From the UHGV virus genome UHGV-0133264: 21,778 bases of DNA. One strand, 5' to 3'. Shown in pieces: positions 16 through 10,272 of this stretch. Under the pieces are notes generated by a model, which made no database searches, was not told where the DNA came from, and was given only the letters and a program-made list of their open reading frames with translations. The stretch comes from a virus. Position numbers and translations under genes: made by a program. Each line of letters begins with the position of its first letter. Within the stretch, counting starts at the first letter, position 1.

Positions 16-1998
16 CGTGTCCAGTGCCGCATTTATCACGCGGGTAACAATATTAGTCTGTTTGGCATCGGATTCAGTTTTAGAATCAGATGTCTCCTGG
101 TGGCTATTAACCGGAGCTTTTAACTCTGGAGTGATTTCTTTCGCATTAGCCTCGCCGATCGGATTGGGTATTTTTGATACAATCATTGCCGCAGGGGTAT
201 TTTTAACGGCATCAACCGCTGCATCTAATGCTTTACCTGGTAAATTTTTAACCCCATCCCAAATATTACCAGCCGCCTCTTTAATGTGTTTCCCTGGGTT
301 CTTAATGAAATCAATTGCACTATCAATTGCATCACTGAAAACCTGTTTCAGGTTATCGACAGTAAAGAAGTCTTTGATGGCATCCAGCTTTTCAAGCAGC
401 TTATTAGATGTATCGCTAAACCATGCTGAAACAGCATCACCAATCTTTGCTGTGTAATCATCGAACTTGGTAGAAATGGTGTCGCCAAGGTTAGAAATAT
501 ATGTTTCTAAGTTGGTAATCCCACTATCAATGGCATGGGCAATACTTTCCGTCGAAAATGATTGCAACATATTGCCGATATCCTCAAATCCAAGTGATTT
601 GAGAACCTCACCAATGGCGCTGCTAATACCAGATACCAGTCCCCCCATATCAAGAATATTAGCTAACGTATAAGCGGCTTTTTGCTGGAATGATGGATCT
701 TGTCCTGATTTAAGCCCAAACGCTCGACGTTGCGCTTCTGTATCATTCCAACCGGTTACCGCATCATAAATACCTCCAACCACTGTGCCGACTAGGGGAA
801 TTGCGCGTAACGCCCCTTTACCAACTGCCTTTAATCCAAGTTTACCTGCTGCCCGGGCAGCCAAATCTCCGCCTTCATGGGCGAGAGTCTTCTTACCACC
901 ACCGCGTAGCATTCCTACAAGTTTCTTTGCCCCCAGAGCGCCAAAAGCGAGTGCTCCAGCTTTTTTCAGCATGCCACGCCCCATTAACAACGACGCGACG
1001 CCACCGGCCCCCTTCCCTAACAGGCTAAATAGTTTGGACAGCAAGCCGCCCTTCTTTTTCCCGGTGTTTTTGGCTATCTGATCAAGGGCGCTGAGAATCT
1101 TGTCATTGCCCTCTTTAATTTCGCTGGTCTGCTCCTGAAGTTCCTGAACCGTCCGTTTTTGGGTGTTAACCTGAACGACATCGGCACTATTTTGCGATTT
1201 ACGCCTAAAAAAACCTTTTCTACGGCTGTTATCGTCATTGCCACGAATCACATCGGCAATAGACTTTCTGGCACCATTAAGCGATCCGCCAACTTCTTTT
1301 GATATCCCGCCAAGCTCCTTCCCTGCTGCCCACAATGGACCTGCAACGGCATAACCTAACGCATCGACAGCACGAGTCTCTGAAGGGTTACCTATGCCTT
1401 CAGCTACTTTTGACAGTTTTTTTAATAAACCTGATTCAGCATTTAGACGCTCATCATCCTCTTTTCGCCTGGCCTTTTCTGCTCGTTCAGCACGGGCATC
1501 TTCCGCTGCGGCCTTACTCCCTGACTTTCCAATAAAACGACCACGCGCATCGCGTTGGTTTTGGCTTTTTTGCGCACCGCCTTTTTGACCGAACATTTCG
1601 CGAGCGTGTTCGGCTGCTTCGGTCCGTTGTGCCTTTACATCCTCTGGTATAGCCTTCCTGCGTCGTTTTTTACCCTTTGGTGTGGTTGATTTGGCCCGCT
1701 GTTCCTGTTGAGCAACATCTTCCTGAACTACACGAGAAACGTCCCCTAAATTAAGCCGTTTCATTGCCTCAACAATAGGGTCCACTGATGGCGCATTGGC
1801 CACAAAGTCTGGCCGGGAATTTTCGATTGTGCGATTTAATGCCGACACACTGCGAGAGACAGGATCAACAGTTGCAACGCGTCCCCCTTTCAAATCTTCA
1901 ACAGCTTCCCGGATACCTGCAAGCTCTTCCAGCTCTTTTGCACTGGCGGTTTCAACTGTCCTTATAACATCGTCAATGTTGGCGTTTTTTCTTTCCAT
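16..1998 (-). CDS. Tape-measure / injected structural protein, N-terminal ~661 aa (3' end truncated by contig edge); occupies the position of P1 sit
   Basis: The minus strand is open from an ATG at ~1998 (MERKNANIDDVIRTVETASAKELEELAGIREAVEDL...) to the window edge. The product is Lys/Gly/Ala-rich with GKKKGG and GxxxG stretches typical of tape-measure proteins. The plus-strand ORFs listed at 17-2026 are fragmented, multi-frame and low-complexity, as expected for its antisense. Not in the ORF track because it has no stop inside the window. Confidence 0.6.
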
Positions 1999-2079
1999 GA
2001 TCTTATCGCCTACCGTTTCGGTTTAAGTTTTTCTTCCAGTTTCTCCAACAGGAAAAACGCATAGGATTCAGTAAGCCTT

Positions 2080-2961
2080 TCAGCGTCCTGAATCGGTATA
2101 CCCCCATACAAAACCAGGTTGGACACTAAGGTCTGATAGCTTTTCAATCCCCACCTGTGGAATGAAGTCGGTAGCCCGAAAGGGCACCCACAGACGGGTA
2201 TACGCACCCTCTGTGGACTCCTTTTTATCCTGATTTGGGCATTTATGCGGCGGGAGACGAAGACGCATTTCACCTTTATCGATGTAGCACGGTAAACCAT
2301 GTTCGAGCTTTTCATGAGCCAGTCGGATGTGTGCCGCCAGCTTCATAAATTCAGTATCAATGGCCATCCGTTTAATCGTTTCATAACGACGCTCAGCCTG
2401 ATCTTCACGAGTACCGCTAACATCGTTATAAAGCTCACACTGATAAGCGAATTCCCAAAAACGCAAATCAACGATCGCTTCTTTGAATTCCGCGTCGTCT
2501 TCAGGTGGCAATGCTGCACGGCGCATCTCCAGCATTTCCATTGCCCAACCATCAAGCGGCACGATACGCCATTGATAAGGTACTCCCTCTACAGACACCT
2601 CAATATCGTCAATGAAAGGTTCCACTTCCAGGACCTGGATATCTTCAGCCAGAGCATTCATATCGCAATCGTAATAATGCTCTTTACCGCAATGTTTACA
2701 GGTGTAAGTGAATGTCTCGACCGGTGTTTCACGGGAGCCGGTAAATATCCACCATAACGCGGTAATCCGGTCCTGCGCCGTCCATGTCAGGGGATCATGT
2801 TTCGCGGGTTCAGCCAGCAAGGCTTTTAAATACGCCGTTGTCTGTTGTTCTTGTTCCTCCGGTGTTATCGAGTTGAAACGCATCGCATCAGCAATATTTG
2901 GCTGACGGAACTGGATCAATTCAGTTGGCCGCGATGGTAGCGGGAAAAGGGGTAAAAGCAT
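2080..2961 (-). CDS. Hypothetical tail-morphogenesis protein with Cys-rich motif (CKHCGKEHYYDCD); P1 pmgB position
   Basis: 293-aa ORF with AAGGAG Shine-Dalgarno 5 nt before the ATG. Lies in the same operon between the tube-like gene and the tape-measure gene. Function unknown. Confidence 0.6.
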   Translation of the reverse strand: MLLPLFPLPSRPTELIQFRQPNIADAMRFNSITPEEQEQQTTAYLKALLAEPAKHDPLTWTAQDRITALWWIFTGSRETPVETFTYTCKHCGKEHYYDCDMNALAEDIQVLEVEPFIDDIEVSVEGVPYQWRIVPLDGWAMEMLEMRRAALPPEDDAEFKEAIVDLRFWEFAYQCELYNDVSGTREDQAERRYETIKRMAIDTEFMKLAAHIRLAHEKLEHGLPCYIDKGEMRLRLPPHKCPNQDKKESTEGAYTRLWVPFRATDFIPQVGIEKLSDLSVQPGFVWGYTDSGR

Positions 2962-2975
2962 CCTTGCTCCTTAAT

Positions 2976-3587
2976 TCAAAGAGAAAAACTAAAGCCCAGA
3001 AGGGAAGCCAAAGAACTTGAGGATTGGTTAAACGTGCTGTGCAATGCGAAGGTCATTGGGAATGACTTAAATTCCGTAACCTGATCCCGCGCATAGGTGA
3101 CATCGCCGGTAGTGACCGGGAATACAGTCATCTCATTTTCCAGTTTGGTTAAGCCGGAAGACAGCAACCGATAAATACGCACATTGAGCAAATATTTAGA
3201 CGGTATATTCCCGGTACCGTCTGGATTAATCACCCGACTTTTTGCCGTCTTAAACCAGTCCAAAACGAGGCCATCAACGGTATCCCTGACCATCATTGTT
3301 ATCTGCCCTGGCGAACGCTCCGTTGGTTGAAGGATATTCCCTCCGCCGATTTTAATCGTTTCATATTCGATGCTGTAATCGTGGTAGGTAATATCTTTGG
3401 CAAAGAAGTCTGCTCCCTCCAGTCCATCAACTTCGACAGAGAACTGCCATCCTTGCGCGAACAGCATTTTGTTCATGATGATTGACGTCAGCTTACCAAC
3501 TTCCCGCTCACCAACGCCGGAGCCAAATAATGTCGTCGTTAATGCCGAAGATACATAAGACTTTACTGAAGCAACATTAAGCCCCAT
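2976..3587 (-). CDS. Putative tail tube-like structural protein (P1 tub position)
   Basis: 203-aa ORF with a GAGGGGG Shine-Dalgarno that overlaps the stop codon of the upstream gene (tight coupling). Beta-rich composition of about 22 kDa. The tube assignment rests on synteny and size only. Confidence 0.45.
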   Translation of the reverse strand: MGLNVASVKSYVSSALTTTLFGSGVGEREVGKLTSIIMNKMLFAQGWQFSVEVDGLEGADFFAKDITYHDYSIEYETIKIGGGNILQPTERSPGQITMMVRDTVDGLVLDWFKTAKSRVINPDGTGNIPSKYLLNVRIYRLLSSGLTKLENEMTVFPVTTGDVTYARDQVTEFKSFPMTFALHSTFNQSSSSLASLLGFSFSL

Positions 3588-3597
3588 ATCAGCCCCC

Positions 3598-4188
<591 letters not shown>

Positions 4189-4318
4189 TTAACCGATTCT
4201 ACGAGTAGTCATTTGTTCATTGAGTAGGAATATTGTTGTCTGGGGGGTAATCAGTGTAGGTGGAATGAGGGATATGATATGGTTATCACATAATCAGGTT
4301 GTTTTGAGTAAAACAATA

Positions 4319-4346
4319 AAACGCCCTTTAATGGGCGTTTTTTTAA
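4319..4346. terminator. Bidirectional rho-independent terminator downstream of the sim-like operon
   Basis: Stem AAACGCCC, loop TTTAAT, stem GGGCGTTT, followed by TTTT on the plus strand and preceded by an A-run, so a U-tract follows the hairpin on either strand. Confidence 0.55.
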
Positions 4347-4373
4347 AACTTAAATTGACTATCCTTTCAAATA

Positions 4374-5186
4374 CTATTTTAATTCTATGTAATTTTTAAA
4401 TTCTCCCTCATATTTATACATGATGCTATCAAATCCTTCCATTACATCAACGAATTGTTGTGAACATTCCGGCTTCCAAGGCGTACACTTACGAACCATA
4501 TCCATTTTTTTCTTATCCTTCGTTGTATCGACTAAGGATAGGTACCCTATAAAATTCATCATCTGAACAGGATCTTGATTTGTGAATATATATTTGACGT
4601 TTTGCTTAGTAGGCGAAAAAGAATCAAAAGCAGGGAACATATATTCACCAGAAAAAGAGAGTGCAGCATCAATGACGTCTGTTGCAGGAGTGCAGTTGCT
4701 CAGAATTGGCACTAAGCTAAAATTAGCACCTGAGCACACTGCATATATATCATCCCCTTTTTTTAGTTTTAACAGAGAGTCTTGCTTTGAATCCAATATT
4801 TTCAATTTGATATAATTTAGTGGCGTTGCATTTTCCCCTGGAGTAAATAACTCTACAATTGGTTTATTATTCACCATTCTTATGGATTTTATTTCACCAT
4901 ACACAATTGGAATTGTGTTCCATTTTTCCTGAGCAGCAAATTCATTATCTTTAAAATCATTAACCAACTCAGATGGCAAATGATAACCAAATTGATTGTT
5001 CATTGCTTTCGAAGCAAATCCAGACAAATAGAATGCCCTTACTAAATCATAATCTTTCTTTGAGGTAGAAAGCCAATCTGGCAATTTATTATCAGCTATC
5101 GCGCTTCCAGCAAAAATAGCACAACAAAATGTTATTACATTAAATAATTTCATTTTCCATTCACTCATTAATCGGTTTAAACTCAC
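4374..5186 (-). CDS. Secreted protein with N-terminal signal peptide; Sim-like superinfection-exclusion candidate (P1 simC position)
   Basis: 270-aa ORF. Internal Met 12 (about 5153) begins MKLFNVITFCCAIFAGSAIA, a classic signal peptide with an AxA cleavage site. AT-rich coding region with many Lys and Asn codons. Confidence 0.55.
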   Translation of the reverse strand: MSLNRLMSEWKMKLFNVITFCCAIFAGSAIADNKLPDWLSTSKKDYDLVRAFYLSGFASKAMNNQFGYHLPSELVNDFKDNEFAAQEKWNTIPIVYGEIKSIRMVNNKPIVELFTPGENATPLNYIKLKILDSKQDSLLKLKKGDDIYAVCSGANFSLVPILSNCTPATDVIDAALSFSGEYMFPAFDSFSPTKQNVKYIFTNQDPVQMMNFIGYLSLVDTTKDKKKMDMVRKCTPWKPECSQQFVDVMEGFDSIMYKYEGEFKNYIELK

Positions 5187-5496
5187 TAATTAATTCACCA
5201 AGACTATTTGGGTATGCTTTATAAATAACATACTCCGAAGAGCCATCTGAATATTGGTAAACCCCATAACAGACCAGTTTATTTATTCCTTTCTGAATAG
5301 TTTTTTGATTATAAGAATCAACCACTGTTATTCCATATGACGATAATATTTCGTTATATTCTTCAATAAGAGCTTTTCTTGTTTCCACTGAATTACAATC
5401 TACCTTCGAAAAGTCAACTTCATCAGCAAAAACATTAAATGTTAAAAAGGAAAGCACTAAAAACAAACGAATCAGCATAAATCCACTCCTACGCAT
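5161..5496 (-). CDS. Small secreted protein with signal peptide (P1 simB position)
   Basis: ORF of 111 aa. The likely start is Met 7 (about 5478), preceded by AGGAG, giving MLIRLFLVLSFLTFNVFA as signal peptide. Confidence 0.5.
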   Translation of the reverse strand: MRRSGFMLIRLFLVLSFLTFNVFADEVDFSKVDCNSVETRKALIEEYNEILSSYGITVVDSYNQKTIQKGINKLVCYGVYQYSDGSSEYVIYKAYPNSLGELISEFKPINE

Positions 5497-5499
5497 GGA

Positions 5500-5631
5500 T
5501 TAATAGTCATTGATCGCAAAGGCGTAAACTTGCCAAAGGTATTTCGTATAATCGGTACAAATCTCCTTTACGCTTGATGCTGCATTAACAGTCCCAGCCA
5601 TAAATAATAACGATAGTAATAGTTTTCTCAT
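5500..5631 (-). CDS. Unlisted 43-aa secreted peptide (MRKLLLSLLFMAGTVNAASSVKEICTDYTKYLWQVYAFAINDY); P1 simA position
   Basis: Found by reading the minus strand; too short for the ORF track. AGGTGAG Shine-Dalgarno about 7 nt upstream of the ATG. Signal peptide with VNA-A cleavage site. Its stop lies 3 nt before the next gene's upstream ATG. Confidence 0.4.
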   Translation of the reverse strand: MRKLLLSLLFMAGTVNAASSVKEICTDYTKYLWQVYAFAINDY

Positions 5632-5727
5632 TATAAACTCACCTGCCTTATCACCCATTTAGGGTACATATTTTCGCCTTTAAAAAAAAGAGGTTATTAG
5701 ATCCAACTGTGTATTTATTAAGCAGAT

Positions 5728-5744
5728 AATGCTCTAATAAATTT
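5728..5744 (+). promoter_or_regulatory. C1 repressor operator (Op51-type), 16/17 match to ATTGCTCTAATAAATTT
   Basis: AATGCTCTAATAAATTT seen directly. Sits between the divergent sim-like operon and the c4-icd-ant operon, about 40 bp upstream of a consensus promoter. Confidence 0.7.
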
Positions 5745-5782
5745 GTATTTTTAAGTCACGAATGCTATCTTTTCGCATCATA

Positions 5783-5811
5783 TTGACCTTTTAATCGTTC
5801 AGGCTTATAGT
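5783..5811 (+). promoter_or_regulatory. Sigma-70 promoter for the c4-icd-ant operon (P51-type)
   Basis: TTGACC, 17-nt spacer, TATAGT. Confidence 0.6.
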
Positions 5812-5924
5812 TCCGCCGTCGTAGCAAATTCTGCGACCGGGTTTAGCAGCCTGAATGATTGTGCGGACAGCCGCAGATATCCGATATTGCGGTATTTTTG
5901 TGTCCGTAAAACCGCGTTACGCCC

Positions 5925-6002
5925 AAATTATGGTGGGGCGTGATGGGGAGGCTTCGGCCTGCTGGTTTCACAATCGCCAGTCTGCTAACCCCGTCACGTC
6001 CT
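5925..6002 (+). ncRNA. c4: c4-type antisense RNA, processed from the leader of the icd-ant transcript
   Basis: Long-range helix CGTGATGGGG (about 5938-5947) pairs with CCCCGTCACG (about 5990-5999), enclosing a GGCTTCGGCC hairpin. The element contains CTGCTAAC, complementary to two GTTTAGCAGC copies at about 5841-5850 and 6010-6019, the latter just upstream of the icd Shine-Dalgarno. Boundaries are approximate. Confidence 0.5.
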
Positions 6003-6058
6003 GCCACCTGTTTAGCAGCGGGTAGCAGGTTGTTAAACCTGATTGTGAGGCCGTAACT

Positions 6059-6280
6059 ATGGTTAATGCCAATCCTTGCGCACGCCCAGAATTCATCTGG
6101 CGTTTCTATTCCTGTAAAAAACACCACTATCACTTCGTTATCGCAGCAACTGAAGACGAAGCACGCTCTCAATTGCCTGATGGCCCCTGCATTTTTACTG
6201 CCCGTTTTTCAACTAACTCGCGCAATTCACTTAGTTACTGGAGCCTCCCCTTCTCTGCCGACGTTCAGGGGGGTTTATGA
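6059..6280 (+). CDS. icd: Icd-like small protein (interference with cell division), translationally coupled to ant
   Basis: 73-aa ORF with GTGAGG Shine-Dalgarno. Its TGA stop overlaps the ant ATG in an ATGA arrangement. Lies immediately downstream of the c4 target repeat. Confidence 0.55.
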   Translation: MVNANPCARPEFIWRFYSCKKHHYHFVIAATEDEARSQLPDGPCIFTARFSTNSRNSLSYWSLPFSADVQGGL

Positions 6281-7323
6281 AAAAACCTCTCGTCACCCGT
6301 AATGACATAGCCGAAGCGATCGCCCTGCATACTGCCTGTATACCGACACGGGAGATCCCCGGCGCAATTGCCAACTATTTCATGATAACCAGGCGTTTTT
6401 ATACCCGAACAGATAAGGCTGTGATCAACAGGCTACTGATAGCCGAGATCAGGGATTATTTGATTGAACAAGGACGTCTACGTTACGCAACGGTGGCAGC
6501 AGAAATGAGAAAGGAGGCACATAGAATGACCAGTAATAATTTGAATGTTAAAAAACCAGCACCTGTTGCTTCAGCAACGCCAGCACCAGCCGTGAATGTC
6601 ATCCCCACCACCGGAGACACAATCGACAGCCTGACACTGTTAAAGATGGTCAATGAGGCACGGAAATTATGTAGCGAAAAACCAGTTCGCAACAATGATT
6701 TCATTGCCAGAGTTAAGGATGAGCTTGATGGGGAGGGTTACGAAATCTTCGTAACCCCTATGGATAAGAAAAAAGGTGGAGCGGATCAGGTAGTTATAGT
6801 AATGACATACAAACAAGCCCTGCGCGTTGCTGCTCGCGAATCGAAAGCGGTCCGCCGTTCGCTGATCGACAAACTGGAAGAATTGCAGCAGGCAAACTCC
6901 CCTACCCCATCGATCCCCCAAACATTACCGGAAGCACTGCGCCTGGCTGCCGAGTTAGCAGAACAGAAAATGCAGCTGGAACAACAGCTGGTGGCCGCAG
7001 CCCCTAAAGTCGATTTTGCCGACCGGGTATCAGTGGCTAATGGAATCCTGATCGGGAACTTTGCAAAGGTCGTTGGACTGAAGCAAAACGCCCTTTTCTC
7101 ATGGTTGCGCCAGAACGGCATTCTCATGGCTTTTGGTGCGCGCAAAAACGTACCGCGCCAACAGTACATCAACGCCGGGTATTTCACGGTGAAAGAAGTG
7201 GTGCTGGATGATGAAAATGGCTACCAGATACGGCTGACGCCCCAATTAACGGGTAAAGGCCAGCAGTGGTTGACTCGCAAGCTACTTGATGCTGGTTTGT
7301 TAAAACCAGTAGCAATAGGTTAA
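6277..7323 (+). CDS. ant: Antirepressor Ant1 (348 aa), with in-frame internal start for Ant2 at about 6526
   Basis: The C-terminal ~110 aa (LPEALRLAAELAEQK...APKVDFADRV...GKGQQWLTRKLLDAGLL) form an Ant/KilA C-terminal domain, about 60% identical to the C-terminus of the downstream kilA. A strong internal AAGGAGG sits 8 nt before Met 84 (MTSNNLNV...). Position after c4-icd matches the P1 immI operon. Confidence 0.75.
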   Translation: MKKPLVTRNDIAEAIALHTACIPTREIPGAIANYFMITRRFYTRTDKAVINRLLIAEIRDYLIEQGRLRYATVAAEMRKEAHRMTSNNLNVKKPAPVASATPAPAVNVIPTTGDTIDSLTLLKMVNEARKLCSEKPVRNNDFIARVKDELDGEGYEIFVTPMDKKKGGADQVVIVMTYKQALRVAARESKAVRRSLIDKLEELQQANSPTPSIPQTLPEALRLAAELAEQKMQLEQQLVAAAPKVDFADRVSVANGILIGNFAKVVGLKQNALFSWLRQNGILMAFGARKNVPRQQYINAGYFTVKEVVLDDENGYQIRLTPQLTGKGQQWLTRKLLDAGLLKPVAIG

Positions 7324-7486: not shown

Positions 7487-8286
7487 ATGCAACAAACATT
7501 CAATGCGGATATGAATATATCAAACCTTCATCAAAATGTCGATCCTTCAACCACTCTACCTGTTATTTGTGGTGTTGAAATTACGACCGACCGCGCTGGC
7601 CGTTACAACCTTAATGCTCTACACAGAGCGAGCGGACTCGGTGCCCATAAAGCGCCAGCTCAATGGCTAAGAACGCTGTCAGCCAAACAGCTCATTGAAG
7701 AGCTTGAAAAAGAAACTATGCAGAATTGCATAGTTTCGTTCGAAGGTCGTGGCGGCGGCACTTTTGCCCATGAATTGCTCGCTGTGGAGTACGCAGGTTG
7801 GATTTCTCCCGCGTTTCGGCTGAAGGTAAACCAGACATTTATCGACTATCGAGCCGGAAGATTACAACCAGCTATTCCGCAGAGTCTCCCTGAAGCACTC
7901 CGTTTGGCAGCCGACCTGGCAGAGCAAAAGCAACGCCTGGAGCAAAAAATGCTTATGGATGCCCCTAAAGTCGAATTCGCCGAACGCGTTGCTACCGCAG
8001 CGGGGTTCTAATCGGCAACTATGCCAAAGTGCTCGGCCTGGGCCAAAACTATCTCTTCACCTGGTTGCGTGATAACGGAATTCTGATCGCAACCGGTGAA
8101 CGCAGGAACGTCCCCAAACAAGAATACATATCCCGTGGGTATTTCACCCTTAAAGAAACCGTGATCGATACAAGCAATGGAAGCAGGATTTCTTTCACGA
8201 CTCGTATAACCGGCAAAGGTCAGCAGTGGCTTATGAAGCGATTGCTTGATGCTGGTGTGCTGGTGCCTATCGCGGCGACGCGCTAA
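7487..8286 (+). pseudogene. kilA: kilA (KilA-N domain plus Ant/KilA C-terminal domain) interrupted by a 1-nt frameshift near 8005
   Basis: ORF 7487-8011 (174 aa, KilA-N-like) and ORF 8029-8286 (85 aa, C-terminal domain) are colinear with the intact ant paralogue. Around 8001-8016 the sequence CGGGGTTCTAATCGGC reads F-stop, while the +2 frame reads LIGNYAKVLGLGQN, matching ILIGNFAKVVGLKQN in ant. The span is 800 nt; one more base restores a 266-aa protein. Confidence 0.7.
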
Positions 8287-8315
8287 CAGACGTAGTAAGA
8301 ACCACCAGCATTGTA

Positions 8316-9457: not shown

Positions 9458-9639
9458 TACACCCGCTGCGGGTGCTTGAGGCTATCTGCTTCAGGCATTA
9501 CCCGACAAGCAGATAGAAAAAAGCCCCAGATAACATTACGCGTCCTGCAAGACGCTTAACATTAATCTGAGGCCATATCTATGCTTAGCATACGTAGATT
9601 AGCCCTCTCCCCTTTTAAGGAGCAAGGAATTTTTTACTG

Positions 9640-10272
9640 CTATGCCGCCTTTCCAGTTATGGATTCAGCGACAAGAACAACCCCATGCTTACTTCGATCT
9701 GGGTGTTCACTCCATATCTCGGATTCAGGAATACTTTCCCCGTCATAGCAAACACGTTCGCCGTCAAACGGGTAATACTGAGCGGCATCGGTGTCGAGGA
9801 TAAACACTTTTAGCTCGGAAGAGCGACGGGCGATGTGTTGCCAAAGAGCTTTTCCACCTTCGTATTGCTCATTATCACTGAGCAAAACAACACCAGCTTT
9901 TGAGGCTACGGTTTCGTAAACAAAAGTAGCTAAACCGACATCCCGGACGGTTCCATCAACCACGATACCTTCAATCTGGGCAACATCGCTATCCTCCCAG
10001 AACTTCCTTACCAGTACGCCTTCAAGCTGCGGGCGACGTTGAAGTTCAAGAGTAGCGACAACCTTATGGCGCATATCACCATCGATAACAGAAGGCGCAG
10101 CCTCTATTACAGCTGCAAATGGGGTTTTGGAATCCCATATAACCTGGTAAAGCACACCCTGGATGGTAACTCCGTCCAGGATCGAAAATCGACGAGCGAC
10201 AGTACCCGGGGAGTACGACATTGGAATCACAGCCATTTTAGAGTCCCCCTTTAACAGTACAGGCACAAACAT
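9640..10272 (-). CDS. Hypothetical protein (possible rlfB/pmgF position)
   Basis: 210-aa ORF. The likely start is Met 13 (about 10236), preceded by AAGGGGGA. Monocistronic: promoter-like AT-rich region upstream and the terminator of the neighbouring operon beyond it. Confidence 0.5.
   Translation of the reverse strand: MFVPVLLKGDSKMAVIPMSYSPGTVARRFSILDGVTIQGVLYQVIWDSKTPFAAVIEAAPSVIDGDMRHKVVATLELQRRPQLEGVLVRKFWEDSDVAQIEGIVVDGTVRDVGLATFVYETVASKAGVVLLSDNEQYEGGKALWQHIARRSSELKVFILDTDAAQYYPFDGERVCYDGESIPESEIWSEHPDRSKHGVVLVAESITGKAA

Follow-up and report, generated by a model that had tools for sequence, protein, structure and literature searches.

An AT-rich island of a P1-like phage-plasmid is very probably the simA-simB-simC superinfection-exclusion operon

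The AT-rich island that separates tail genes from immunity genes in the stretch of DNA analysed here (virus genome UHGV-0133264, 21,778 nucleotides; hereafter the window) is, with high confidence, the simA-simB-simC superinfection-exclusion operon of a P1-like phage-plasmid. It occupies an accessory site, with the tail operon (pmgC-tub-pmgB-sit) on one side and ImmI (Oc4, c4 RNA, icd, ant) on the other. The island is already known, as all elements of the original prediction that we followed up are on record, the short simA included. The operon was reportedly cloned and sequenced in 1989-90 and is said to have received its full annotation with the P1 genome in 2004. Since the identity of sim, its low G+C content, its variability and the annotation of simA are all published, the finding is correct but not new. 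What we add is modest and comprises the interpretation of simA as a remnant, fold predictions for SimC and SimB, and a view of the locus as a site with three cassettes.

The window represents a segment of a P1-like phage-plasmid, and around the island this phage-plasmid is a mosaic that is only ~96% identical to P1, across 84-94% of the window length. The GC minimum of the whole window lies at 4343-5727, with a value of 0.329 vs 0.472 window-wide, i.e. 3.6 SD under the mean of all stretches of the same length. The claim of an AT-rich island at 4374-5640 therefore holds at these coordinates, which coincide with the lowest-GC stretch of the window. By gene, the GC content is 0.336 for simC, 0.312 for simB and 0.365 for simA, compared to 0.474 and 0.493 for the flanking genes pmgC and ant1. 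Three minus-strand ORFs are found in the island (4374-5186, 5161-5496 and 5500-5658). The left flank comprises sit, which runs off the end of the window, pmgB, tub (2976-3587) and pmgC (3598-4164), all on the minus strand. To the right, on the plus strand, Rfam models identify the c4-a1b1 target (5805-5857) and the C4 antisense RNA (5926-6011), and the genes follow in the order icd, ant1 (6277-7323), kilA and repL. Thus, the island is located between pmgC/LPsit and the Oc4 operator/c4 RNA of ImmI and is oriented for transcription away from c4, the position that is expected for sim.

Direct comparison with P1 shows that the DNA of window positions 4200-5844 is 98.7% identical to P1 46612-48256, where simC, simB and simA are annotated, and that the genes, their order, the flanks, the terminator and the operator are the same. 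What had been predicted as a Sim-type exclusion module is thus the P1 sim operon itself, based on DNA identity and gene order. At the protein level 263 of 264 residues are shared for SimC (N220K), 111 of 111 for SimB and 46 of 52 for SimA. The simC gene carries six nucleotide substitutions relative to P1 with a single residue change and simB carries one without any, while all six substitutions in simA change a residue. A further difference to P1 is found in the T-run of the terminator, which is two bases longer in the window (4340, 4342). The closest sequences to the island are E. coli plasmids such as NZ_CP089136, with 99.8% identity over the island. In P1 the operon corresponds to P1_gp041-043 (GenBank M34382, NC_005856 46786-48070), and the P1 record describes simC (P1_gp041) as 'superimmunity', and simB and simA as 'putative superimmunity accessory function'. 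In the 1990 entry M34382 two frames are given, 'sim region ORF 1' and 'ORF 2', the latter with 780 nt encoding the 259-aa form that starts with MKLFN. The proposal that the trio forms an exclusion module stands for simC, the published exclusion gene, but less so for simB and simA, for which the accessory role is putative and the simA gene looks truncated.

The island is bracketed by a bidirectional intrinsic terminator and a C1 operator, as had been predicted. The terminator hairpin (4318-4341, AAAACGCCC-loop-GGGCGTTTT) has a 9-bp G+C-rich stem with U-runs on both strands and sits 32 nt past the simC stop codon, where it stands between sim and the late promoter LPsit with the pmgC-tub-pmgB-sit tail operon. 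Folding yields -16.9 and -18.2 kcal/mol for the two strands, with z-scores of -3.4 and -4.9 relative to shuffled sequences. On the other side the C1 repressor operator Oc4, formerly Op51 (5728-5744, plus strand, AATGCTCTAATAAATTT), has one mismatch to the consensus. Two near-consensus C1 operators are found in the window vs 0.09 expected by chance. Oc4 is located 6 bp upstream of the -35 element of the predicted promoter PsimA and overlaps the -35 element of the divergent c4 promoter P2c4; the P1 record assigns Oc4/Op51 to the divergent c4-icd-ant operon and not to sim. PsimA itself is a predicted sigma-70 promoter on the minus strand (5696-5722), placed from the P1 annotation (48108-48134 minus 42412). 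It has weak hexamers and is not recovered by a consensus promoter scan of the window. The P1 record also marks PsimB and LPsit, and the sim promoters in that record are predictions.

All three proteins are predicted to be exported. Based on a reading of n-, h- and c-regions and of the cleavage site, the N-termini of SimA, SimB and SimC each begin with a brief basic segment, continue into a hydrophobic core free of charges and end in a cleavage site of the small-x-small type. The prediction of three co-oriented genes with signal peptides is thus confirmed as far as the sequence can tell, with a Sec-type N-terminus in each of the minus-strand ORFs. A crude scan for n/h/c-regions flags 7 of 145 six-frame ORFs (at least 40 aa), and these include all three sim ORFs; the remaining ones are four short ORFs that lie antisense or out of frame. 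The SimC signal peptide (MKLFNVITFCCAIFAGSAIA, 5094-5153, minus strand) shows the three regions and an AXA site, with a predicted cut after AIA, and the mature protein would start with DNKLP. Presumably, 20 residues are cleaved from Sim. There is no lipobox in SimC, as the signal peptide ends with AIA and is followed by Asp, with no Cys at +1, and outer-membrane anchoring is therefore not predicted. Processing of Sim is given in the title of Maillou & Dreiseikelmann 1990, as cited in PMC2409434. In SimB the sequence M(RRSGFM)LIRLFLVLSFLTFNVFA is followed by DEVDF, and in the short form MLIRLFLVLSFLTFNVFA is followed by DEV. The SimA signal peptide (MRKLLLSLLFMAGTVNA, then ASSVK) comprises 17 aa and leaves a tail of 26 aa. 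Conserved Cys pairs in both SimB and SimC are consistent with a periplasmic location.

The simC (sim) gene (4374-5153, minus strand) encodes a precursor of 259 aa, in agreement with the original M34382 record, while P1 RefSeq gives 264 aa from ATG 5168. In the predicted layout the signal peptide (residues 1-20) is followed by a helix (32-52), an OB fold (~60-156) and a C-terminal helical domain (183-257) that holds the Cys pair CTPWKPEC. The structure model, computed from an alignment of 8 sequences, is of moderate confidence, with a pLDDT of 66 overall and of 75-87 in the core. We predict from this model that the centre of SimC folds as an OB domain of the type found in secreted 'tRNA_anti-like' lipoproteins. 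Its five-stranded OB barrel superposes on a solved member of Pfam family PF12869 (PDB 3f1z), a 'tRNA_anti-like' family that includes phage proteins annotated as 'host cell surface-exposed lipoprotein'. The match of the SimC sequence to PF12869 (residues 73-165, E 0.0011) is below the gathering threshold (19.0 vs 23.5 bits), and a SimC profile search against PDB sequences returned nothing meaningful (E 0.16). Compared to PF12869, SimC is extended by a helix at the N-terminus and by a helical domain of ~100 aa at the C-terminus. The OB fold is not informative on a specific ligand.

As judged from sequence searches, the SimC family is very narrow and nearly orphan, and thus only a shallow alignment is available for structure prediction. 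HMMER, run exhaustively against 1.84 billion representatives, returned 15 matches, which are mostly fragments and include a few OB-only relatives. Outside the cluster of the query only two relatives are full length at a similar size (84% and 39% identity), while a shorter one of 225 aa is 29% identical. Among these representatives the C-terminal domain is present in only four full-length relatives, i.e. two library representatives, the copy in the diverged P1-like contig L010 and the 225-aa protein. A word-indexed search with SimC found 4 proteins.

The simB gene (5161-5478, minus strand) encodes 105 aa from ATG 5478, with AGGAG and 7 nt before it, and overlaps the start region of simC. P1 annotates a SimB of 111 aa from ATG 5496, whereas the PHROG profile and database homologues correspond to the 105-aa form. 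The mature domain of ~85 aa contains two invariant Cys and is tentatively predicted, by modelling with database homologues, to adopt a cystatin-like or NTF2-like α+β fold. Homologues with 41-55% identity share 23 invariant positions, which indicates purifying selection on SimB. A Pfam match of SimB to TcpS (E 0.068) was discarded as an artefact of the signal peptide. NCBIfam holds no model for SimA, SimB or SimC, and PADLOC gives no match at E ≤0.1 for these three proteins or for those of the alternative cassettes described below.

The third gene, simA (5500-5631, minus strand), encodes 43 aa from ATG 5631. The longest form, annotated in P1 (P1_gp043), has 52 aa from ATG 5658, but alignment to the PHROG profile sets in at residue 10 of this form, which makes the 43-aa protein likelier. 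The proposed 43-aa ORF is thus real, as supported by PHROG and by GGCAGGTGAG preceding the ATG. Its description as unlisted and missed by annotators is only partly correct: simA is annotated in the P1 reference, but a second P1 record lacks it, and so do those PLSDB gene tables that were listed, in which the island holds just two CDS; these tables are incomplete by design.

Several features suggest that simA is a remnant. It lies in one frame with simB, with TAA and a single Ser codon between the two genes. In P1 and in the window the simA DNA is colinear with the first ~50 codons of a gene encoding a 215-aa protein in phage vB_EcoM-Ro157c2YLVW, and the first ~41 residues of this protein match SimA. 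The two genes diverge in the final 18 nt of simA, and it is there that the TAA arises; they share 9 more nt (ATCCATGCG), after which similarity is lost. The same few bases after simA are also similar to sequence upstream of simB from another relative, and owing to the bases shared on both sides the junction maps to within ~10 nt of 5490-5500. From these alignments, the 43-aa simA is probably the truncated 5' end of a gene for a secreted protein of 179-215 aa, most of which has been deleted. The exclusively nonsynonymous changes in simA (6 of 6) are consistent with relaxed constraint, although the numbers are small. A PTPlike_phytase match of the 215-aa protein was rejected (26.6 vs 27 bits, no CX5R motif), and no function is assigned to it.

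The stop codon of simA is variable among plasmids. Using an exact 57-mer around the stop, TAA is found in 128 PLSDB records and AAA in 8, so that the stop is lost in ~6% of the sim-carrying plasmids, with fusion of simA and simB. It is kept in ~91% of records, which are nearly clonal. In plasmid pMCR_SCKP-LL83 the stop codon reads AAA and simA-simB forms a single ORF, annotated as a 471-nt 'simB' (PMC5786510). The short exported SimA could still act.

Relatives of the operon place simB and simC together. In a further contig, L007, which carries them at the same site, SimC is 83% and SimB 92% identical, and the genes are adjacent with no simA in front; the order is a 107-aa membrane protein, SimB, SimC, the full 215-aa protein, a 158-aa YfjT-like protein and pmgC. 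In L010, with identities of 47% for SimC, 59% for SimB and 78% for PmgC, the gene directly upstream of simB-simC encodes a protein of 179 aa that is homologous to the Ro157c2 protein (60% identity). Based on this gene content, simB and simC appear to form a conserved working pair, and the long 'SimA' is a frequent neighbour of simB-simC and possibly an ancestral third member.

The Sim phenotype is said to have been defined originally with multicopy clones, and P1 lysogens can reportedly still be superinfected, which makes strong exclusion by a single-copy prophage a putative property. The superinfection exclusion gene of P1 has been named simC (PMC2409434), and sim confers exclusion in P1 (PMC9177967). 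Sim may stop superinfecting phages from injecting their DNA (PMC8546580), and a review groups it with T4 Imm and P22 SieA as blockers of phage DNA translocation (PMC9952470). For lytic growth simA, simB and simC are each non-essential by CRISPRi (PMC10695390). The low G+C content of sim and its status as a 'recent acquisition' have been described (PMC6906374), and sim is one of eight regions with high variability in P1-like phage-plasmids (PMC9603915). As the proteins encoded here are nearly identical to those studied, we infer that the island would exclude P1 infection and transduction after adsorption. Like Sim, T4 Imm and Sp, P22 SieA and HK97 gp15 are phage-encoded envelope proteins that halt DNA after adsorption, but they show no relationship to Sim in sequence or fold. 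Imm, SieA and gp15 are inner-membrane proteins. For SimB and SimC, in contrast, the prediction is a soluble protein that resides in the periplasm after cleavage of its signal peptide.

We propose that sim would be transcribed leftward from weak sigma-70 promoters beside the C1 operator and that transcription would end at the hairpin 4318-4341, so that no readthrough into the late tail operon would occur. SimC, along with SimB, would be exported by Sec and their signal peptides removed. In the periplasm the two proteins may block a post-adsorption step, i.e. the passage of incoming P1 DNA across the envelope, and this block would exclude superinfecting P1-type phages as well as transducing particles. 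The OB domain of SimC may bind a component of the injection process, namely the tail-tube tip, the Sit tape-measure/transglycosylase or the DNA. We favour the injection apparatus (tail-tube tip or Sit) as the target, because soluble periplasmic proteins with binding-module folds are predicted and their genes lie beside sit-tub. SimB might serve as a cystatin-like binding partner or inhibitor, while the 43-aa SimA would represent what is left of a third component that was once longer, and not a dedicated peptide.

It has to be considered that only SimC matters and that the trio is not a functional unit, with SimB as an unrelated small periplasmic protein and SimA as a dead fragment, both passengers. 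We regard this as rather unlikely. In its favour, the cited literature names sim or simC alone as the exclusion gene (PMC2409434, PMC9177967), the P1 annotation gives simA and simB 'putative accessory' functions, and the truncated appearance of simA favours the same view. A SimB-like domain also occurs without SimC, in orf79 of phage D6 (298 aa) and beside a YfjT-like gene in L012. Against passenger status, simB and simC remain neighbours in three lineages, at identities down to 47-59%, and their reading frames overlap or abut. This conserved adjacency argues for a shared function, and the purifying selection seen at the 23 invariant positions likewise speaks against a passenger SimB.

We consider two further explanations very improbable. 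The island might be a lysogenic-conversion 'moron' that serves the host envelope (stress, colicin or serum resistance, colonisation) instead of exclusion. Low-GC DNA that is exchangeable at a hot spot (PMC6906374), alternative cassettes encoding generic envelope proteins (glycine-zipper lipoprotein, DUF5384, YfjT-like) and the lack of a match to any defence-system model would fit such a role, but exclusion by sim is documented in the literature (PMC9177967, PMC2409434, PMC9952470) and the SimC and SimB proteins here are 99-100% identical to those of P1. Alternatively, Sim could mask or modify the receptor (LPS core) and thereby prevent adsorption instead of DNA passage. Oligosaccharides are possible ligands of an OB fold, and periplasmic or outer-membrane proteins of other phages do mask receptors, e.g. 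T5 Llp acting on FhuA. Such masking is at odds with the adsorption that Kliem & Dreiseikelmann in 1989 reportedly found to be normal. It is also difficult to reconcile with a SimC that has no lipobox and no predicted outer-membrane anchor, and with the placement of Sim among the DNA-translocation blockers (PMC9952470). A block of DNA passage by periplasmic SimC and SimB remains our preferred explanation. The SimC OB-fold model, the cystatin-like SimB model, the conserved simB-simC pair and the truncated simA with its intact relatives provide handles on this block.

Comparison of the pmgC|Oc4 site across P1-like genomes, which had been suggested as a check on composition and content of the locus, reveals no fewer than three alternative cassettes, each encoding exported proteins. 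Part of the query is matched by 549 PLSDB plasmids; the sim island is present in 136-141 records, a P7-type cassette in 168 and a Ro157c2-type cassette in 81-125, so that the three types are similarly frequent. The cassette of P7, SJ46 and RCS47 encodes the lipoprotein Upf50.5, a glycine-zipper protein with a weak sub-threshold match to TraT, and the DUF5384 protein Upf50.0, while that of Ro157c2YLVW encodes the 215-aa protein and a 158-aa YfjT-like protein, both secreted. Insertion site and orientation of both cassettes are the same as for sim and all products have signal peptides, but the proteins are unrelated to Sim except for the SimA-like N-terminus of the Ro157c2 215-aa protein. To our knowledge, no exclusion phenotype has been described for the alternative cassettes. 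The ImmI region of phage D6 was considered as a fourth allele and rejected, as it is organised differently and the SimB-like gene of D6 is located elsewhere.

Tentatively, and with considerable doubt, we suggest that the pmgC|c4 site is an 'exclusion-type' locus at which cassettes of exported proteins are swapped. The ancestral Sim system would then have comprised a full-length SimA-long (180-215 aa), SimB and SimC, and the P1 version would be a decayed one in which SimA-long has been cut to a 43-aa stub. Each cassette might be matched to the adjacent sit/tail-tube genes, and the cassette type could decide which P1-like elements invade an occupied cell. As the genes are physical neighbours, linkage by itself would make cassette type and sit alleles co-vary in a small set of genomes. 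P1-like phage-plasmids spread resistance genes, e.g. mcr-1 and blaCTX-M-55 (PMC5786510, PMC9603915), and knowing which of the at least three cassettes excludes which element could help to explain their coexistence and spread. Every cassette is lower in GC than its own locus, and sim is the most AT-rich of them.

In the P1-like contig L007 (Logan SRR14689322), the sim site is occupied by five tandem genes for exported or membrane proteins (209-3109), encoding in order a 107-aa TM protein, SimB, SimC, the 215-aa secreted protein SimA-long (in phage Ro157c2YLVW, its first ~41 residues match SimA) and a YfjT-like product. In L012, an unrelated context, a SimB-like gene likewise has a homologue of the 107-aa TM protein next to it. 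In L010, a diverged P1-like contig, an IS605-family OrfB (TnpB-like) gene (3108-4238) separates icd/ant from the sim-like module, which is consistent with the sim site being an insertion hot spot.

At the equivalent site, phage P7 carries a cassette with a glycine-zipper lipoprotein gene (P7 segment L002, 2696-3217). TraT is the surface-exclusion lipoprotein of F-like plasmids, and the match of the P7-type protein to it is sub-threshold (E 7e-5; 23 bits, with the cut-off at 31). The RefSeq name of the P7-type protein, 'DNA methyltransferase', looks like a mis-annotation.

The simA stop codon itself (window 5500-5502) is polymorphic among PLSDB records, reading TAA in 128 and AAA in eight. The AAA variant joins simA and simB into a single fusion ORF, whose product has two tandem hydrophobic segments, as at 1262-1732 of plasmid pMCR_SCKP-LL83 (MF510496.1). 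Downstream of simC, two G-to-T substitutions relative to P1, at window positions 4340 and 4342, extend the run of Ts that flanks the terminator hairpin on its plus-strand side.

Further along the window, kilA (7487-8300) carries a 1-nt deletion near 7998 relative to P1. Its ORF ends after 174 aa rather than 266 aa, and the remainder of KilA past the deletion is intact in a different frame; kilA may be a frameshifted pseudogene, or the deletion may be an error of sequencing. Directly downstream of repL, a full-length Rfam match (90.7 bits) identifies the sok antitoxin RNA belonging to a hok/sok-type module (window 9470-9644, plus strand). In P1 this region is occupied by rlfA/rlfB, already published as another variable region of P1-like plasmids.
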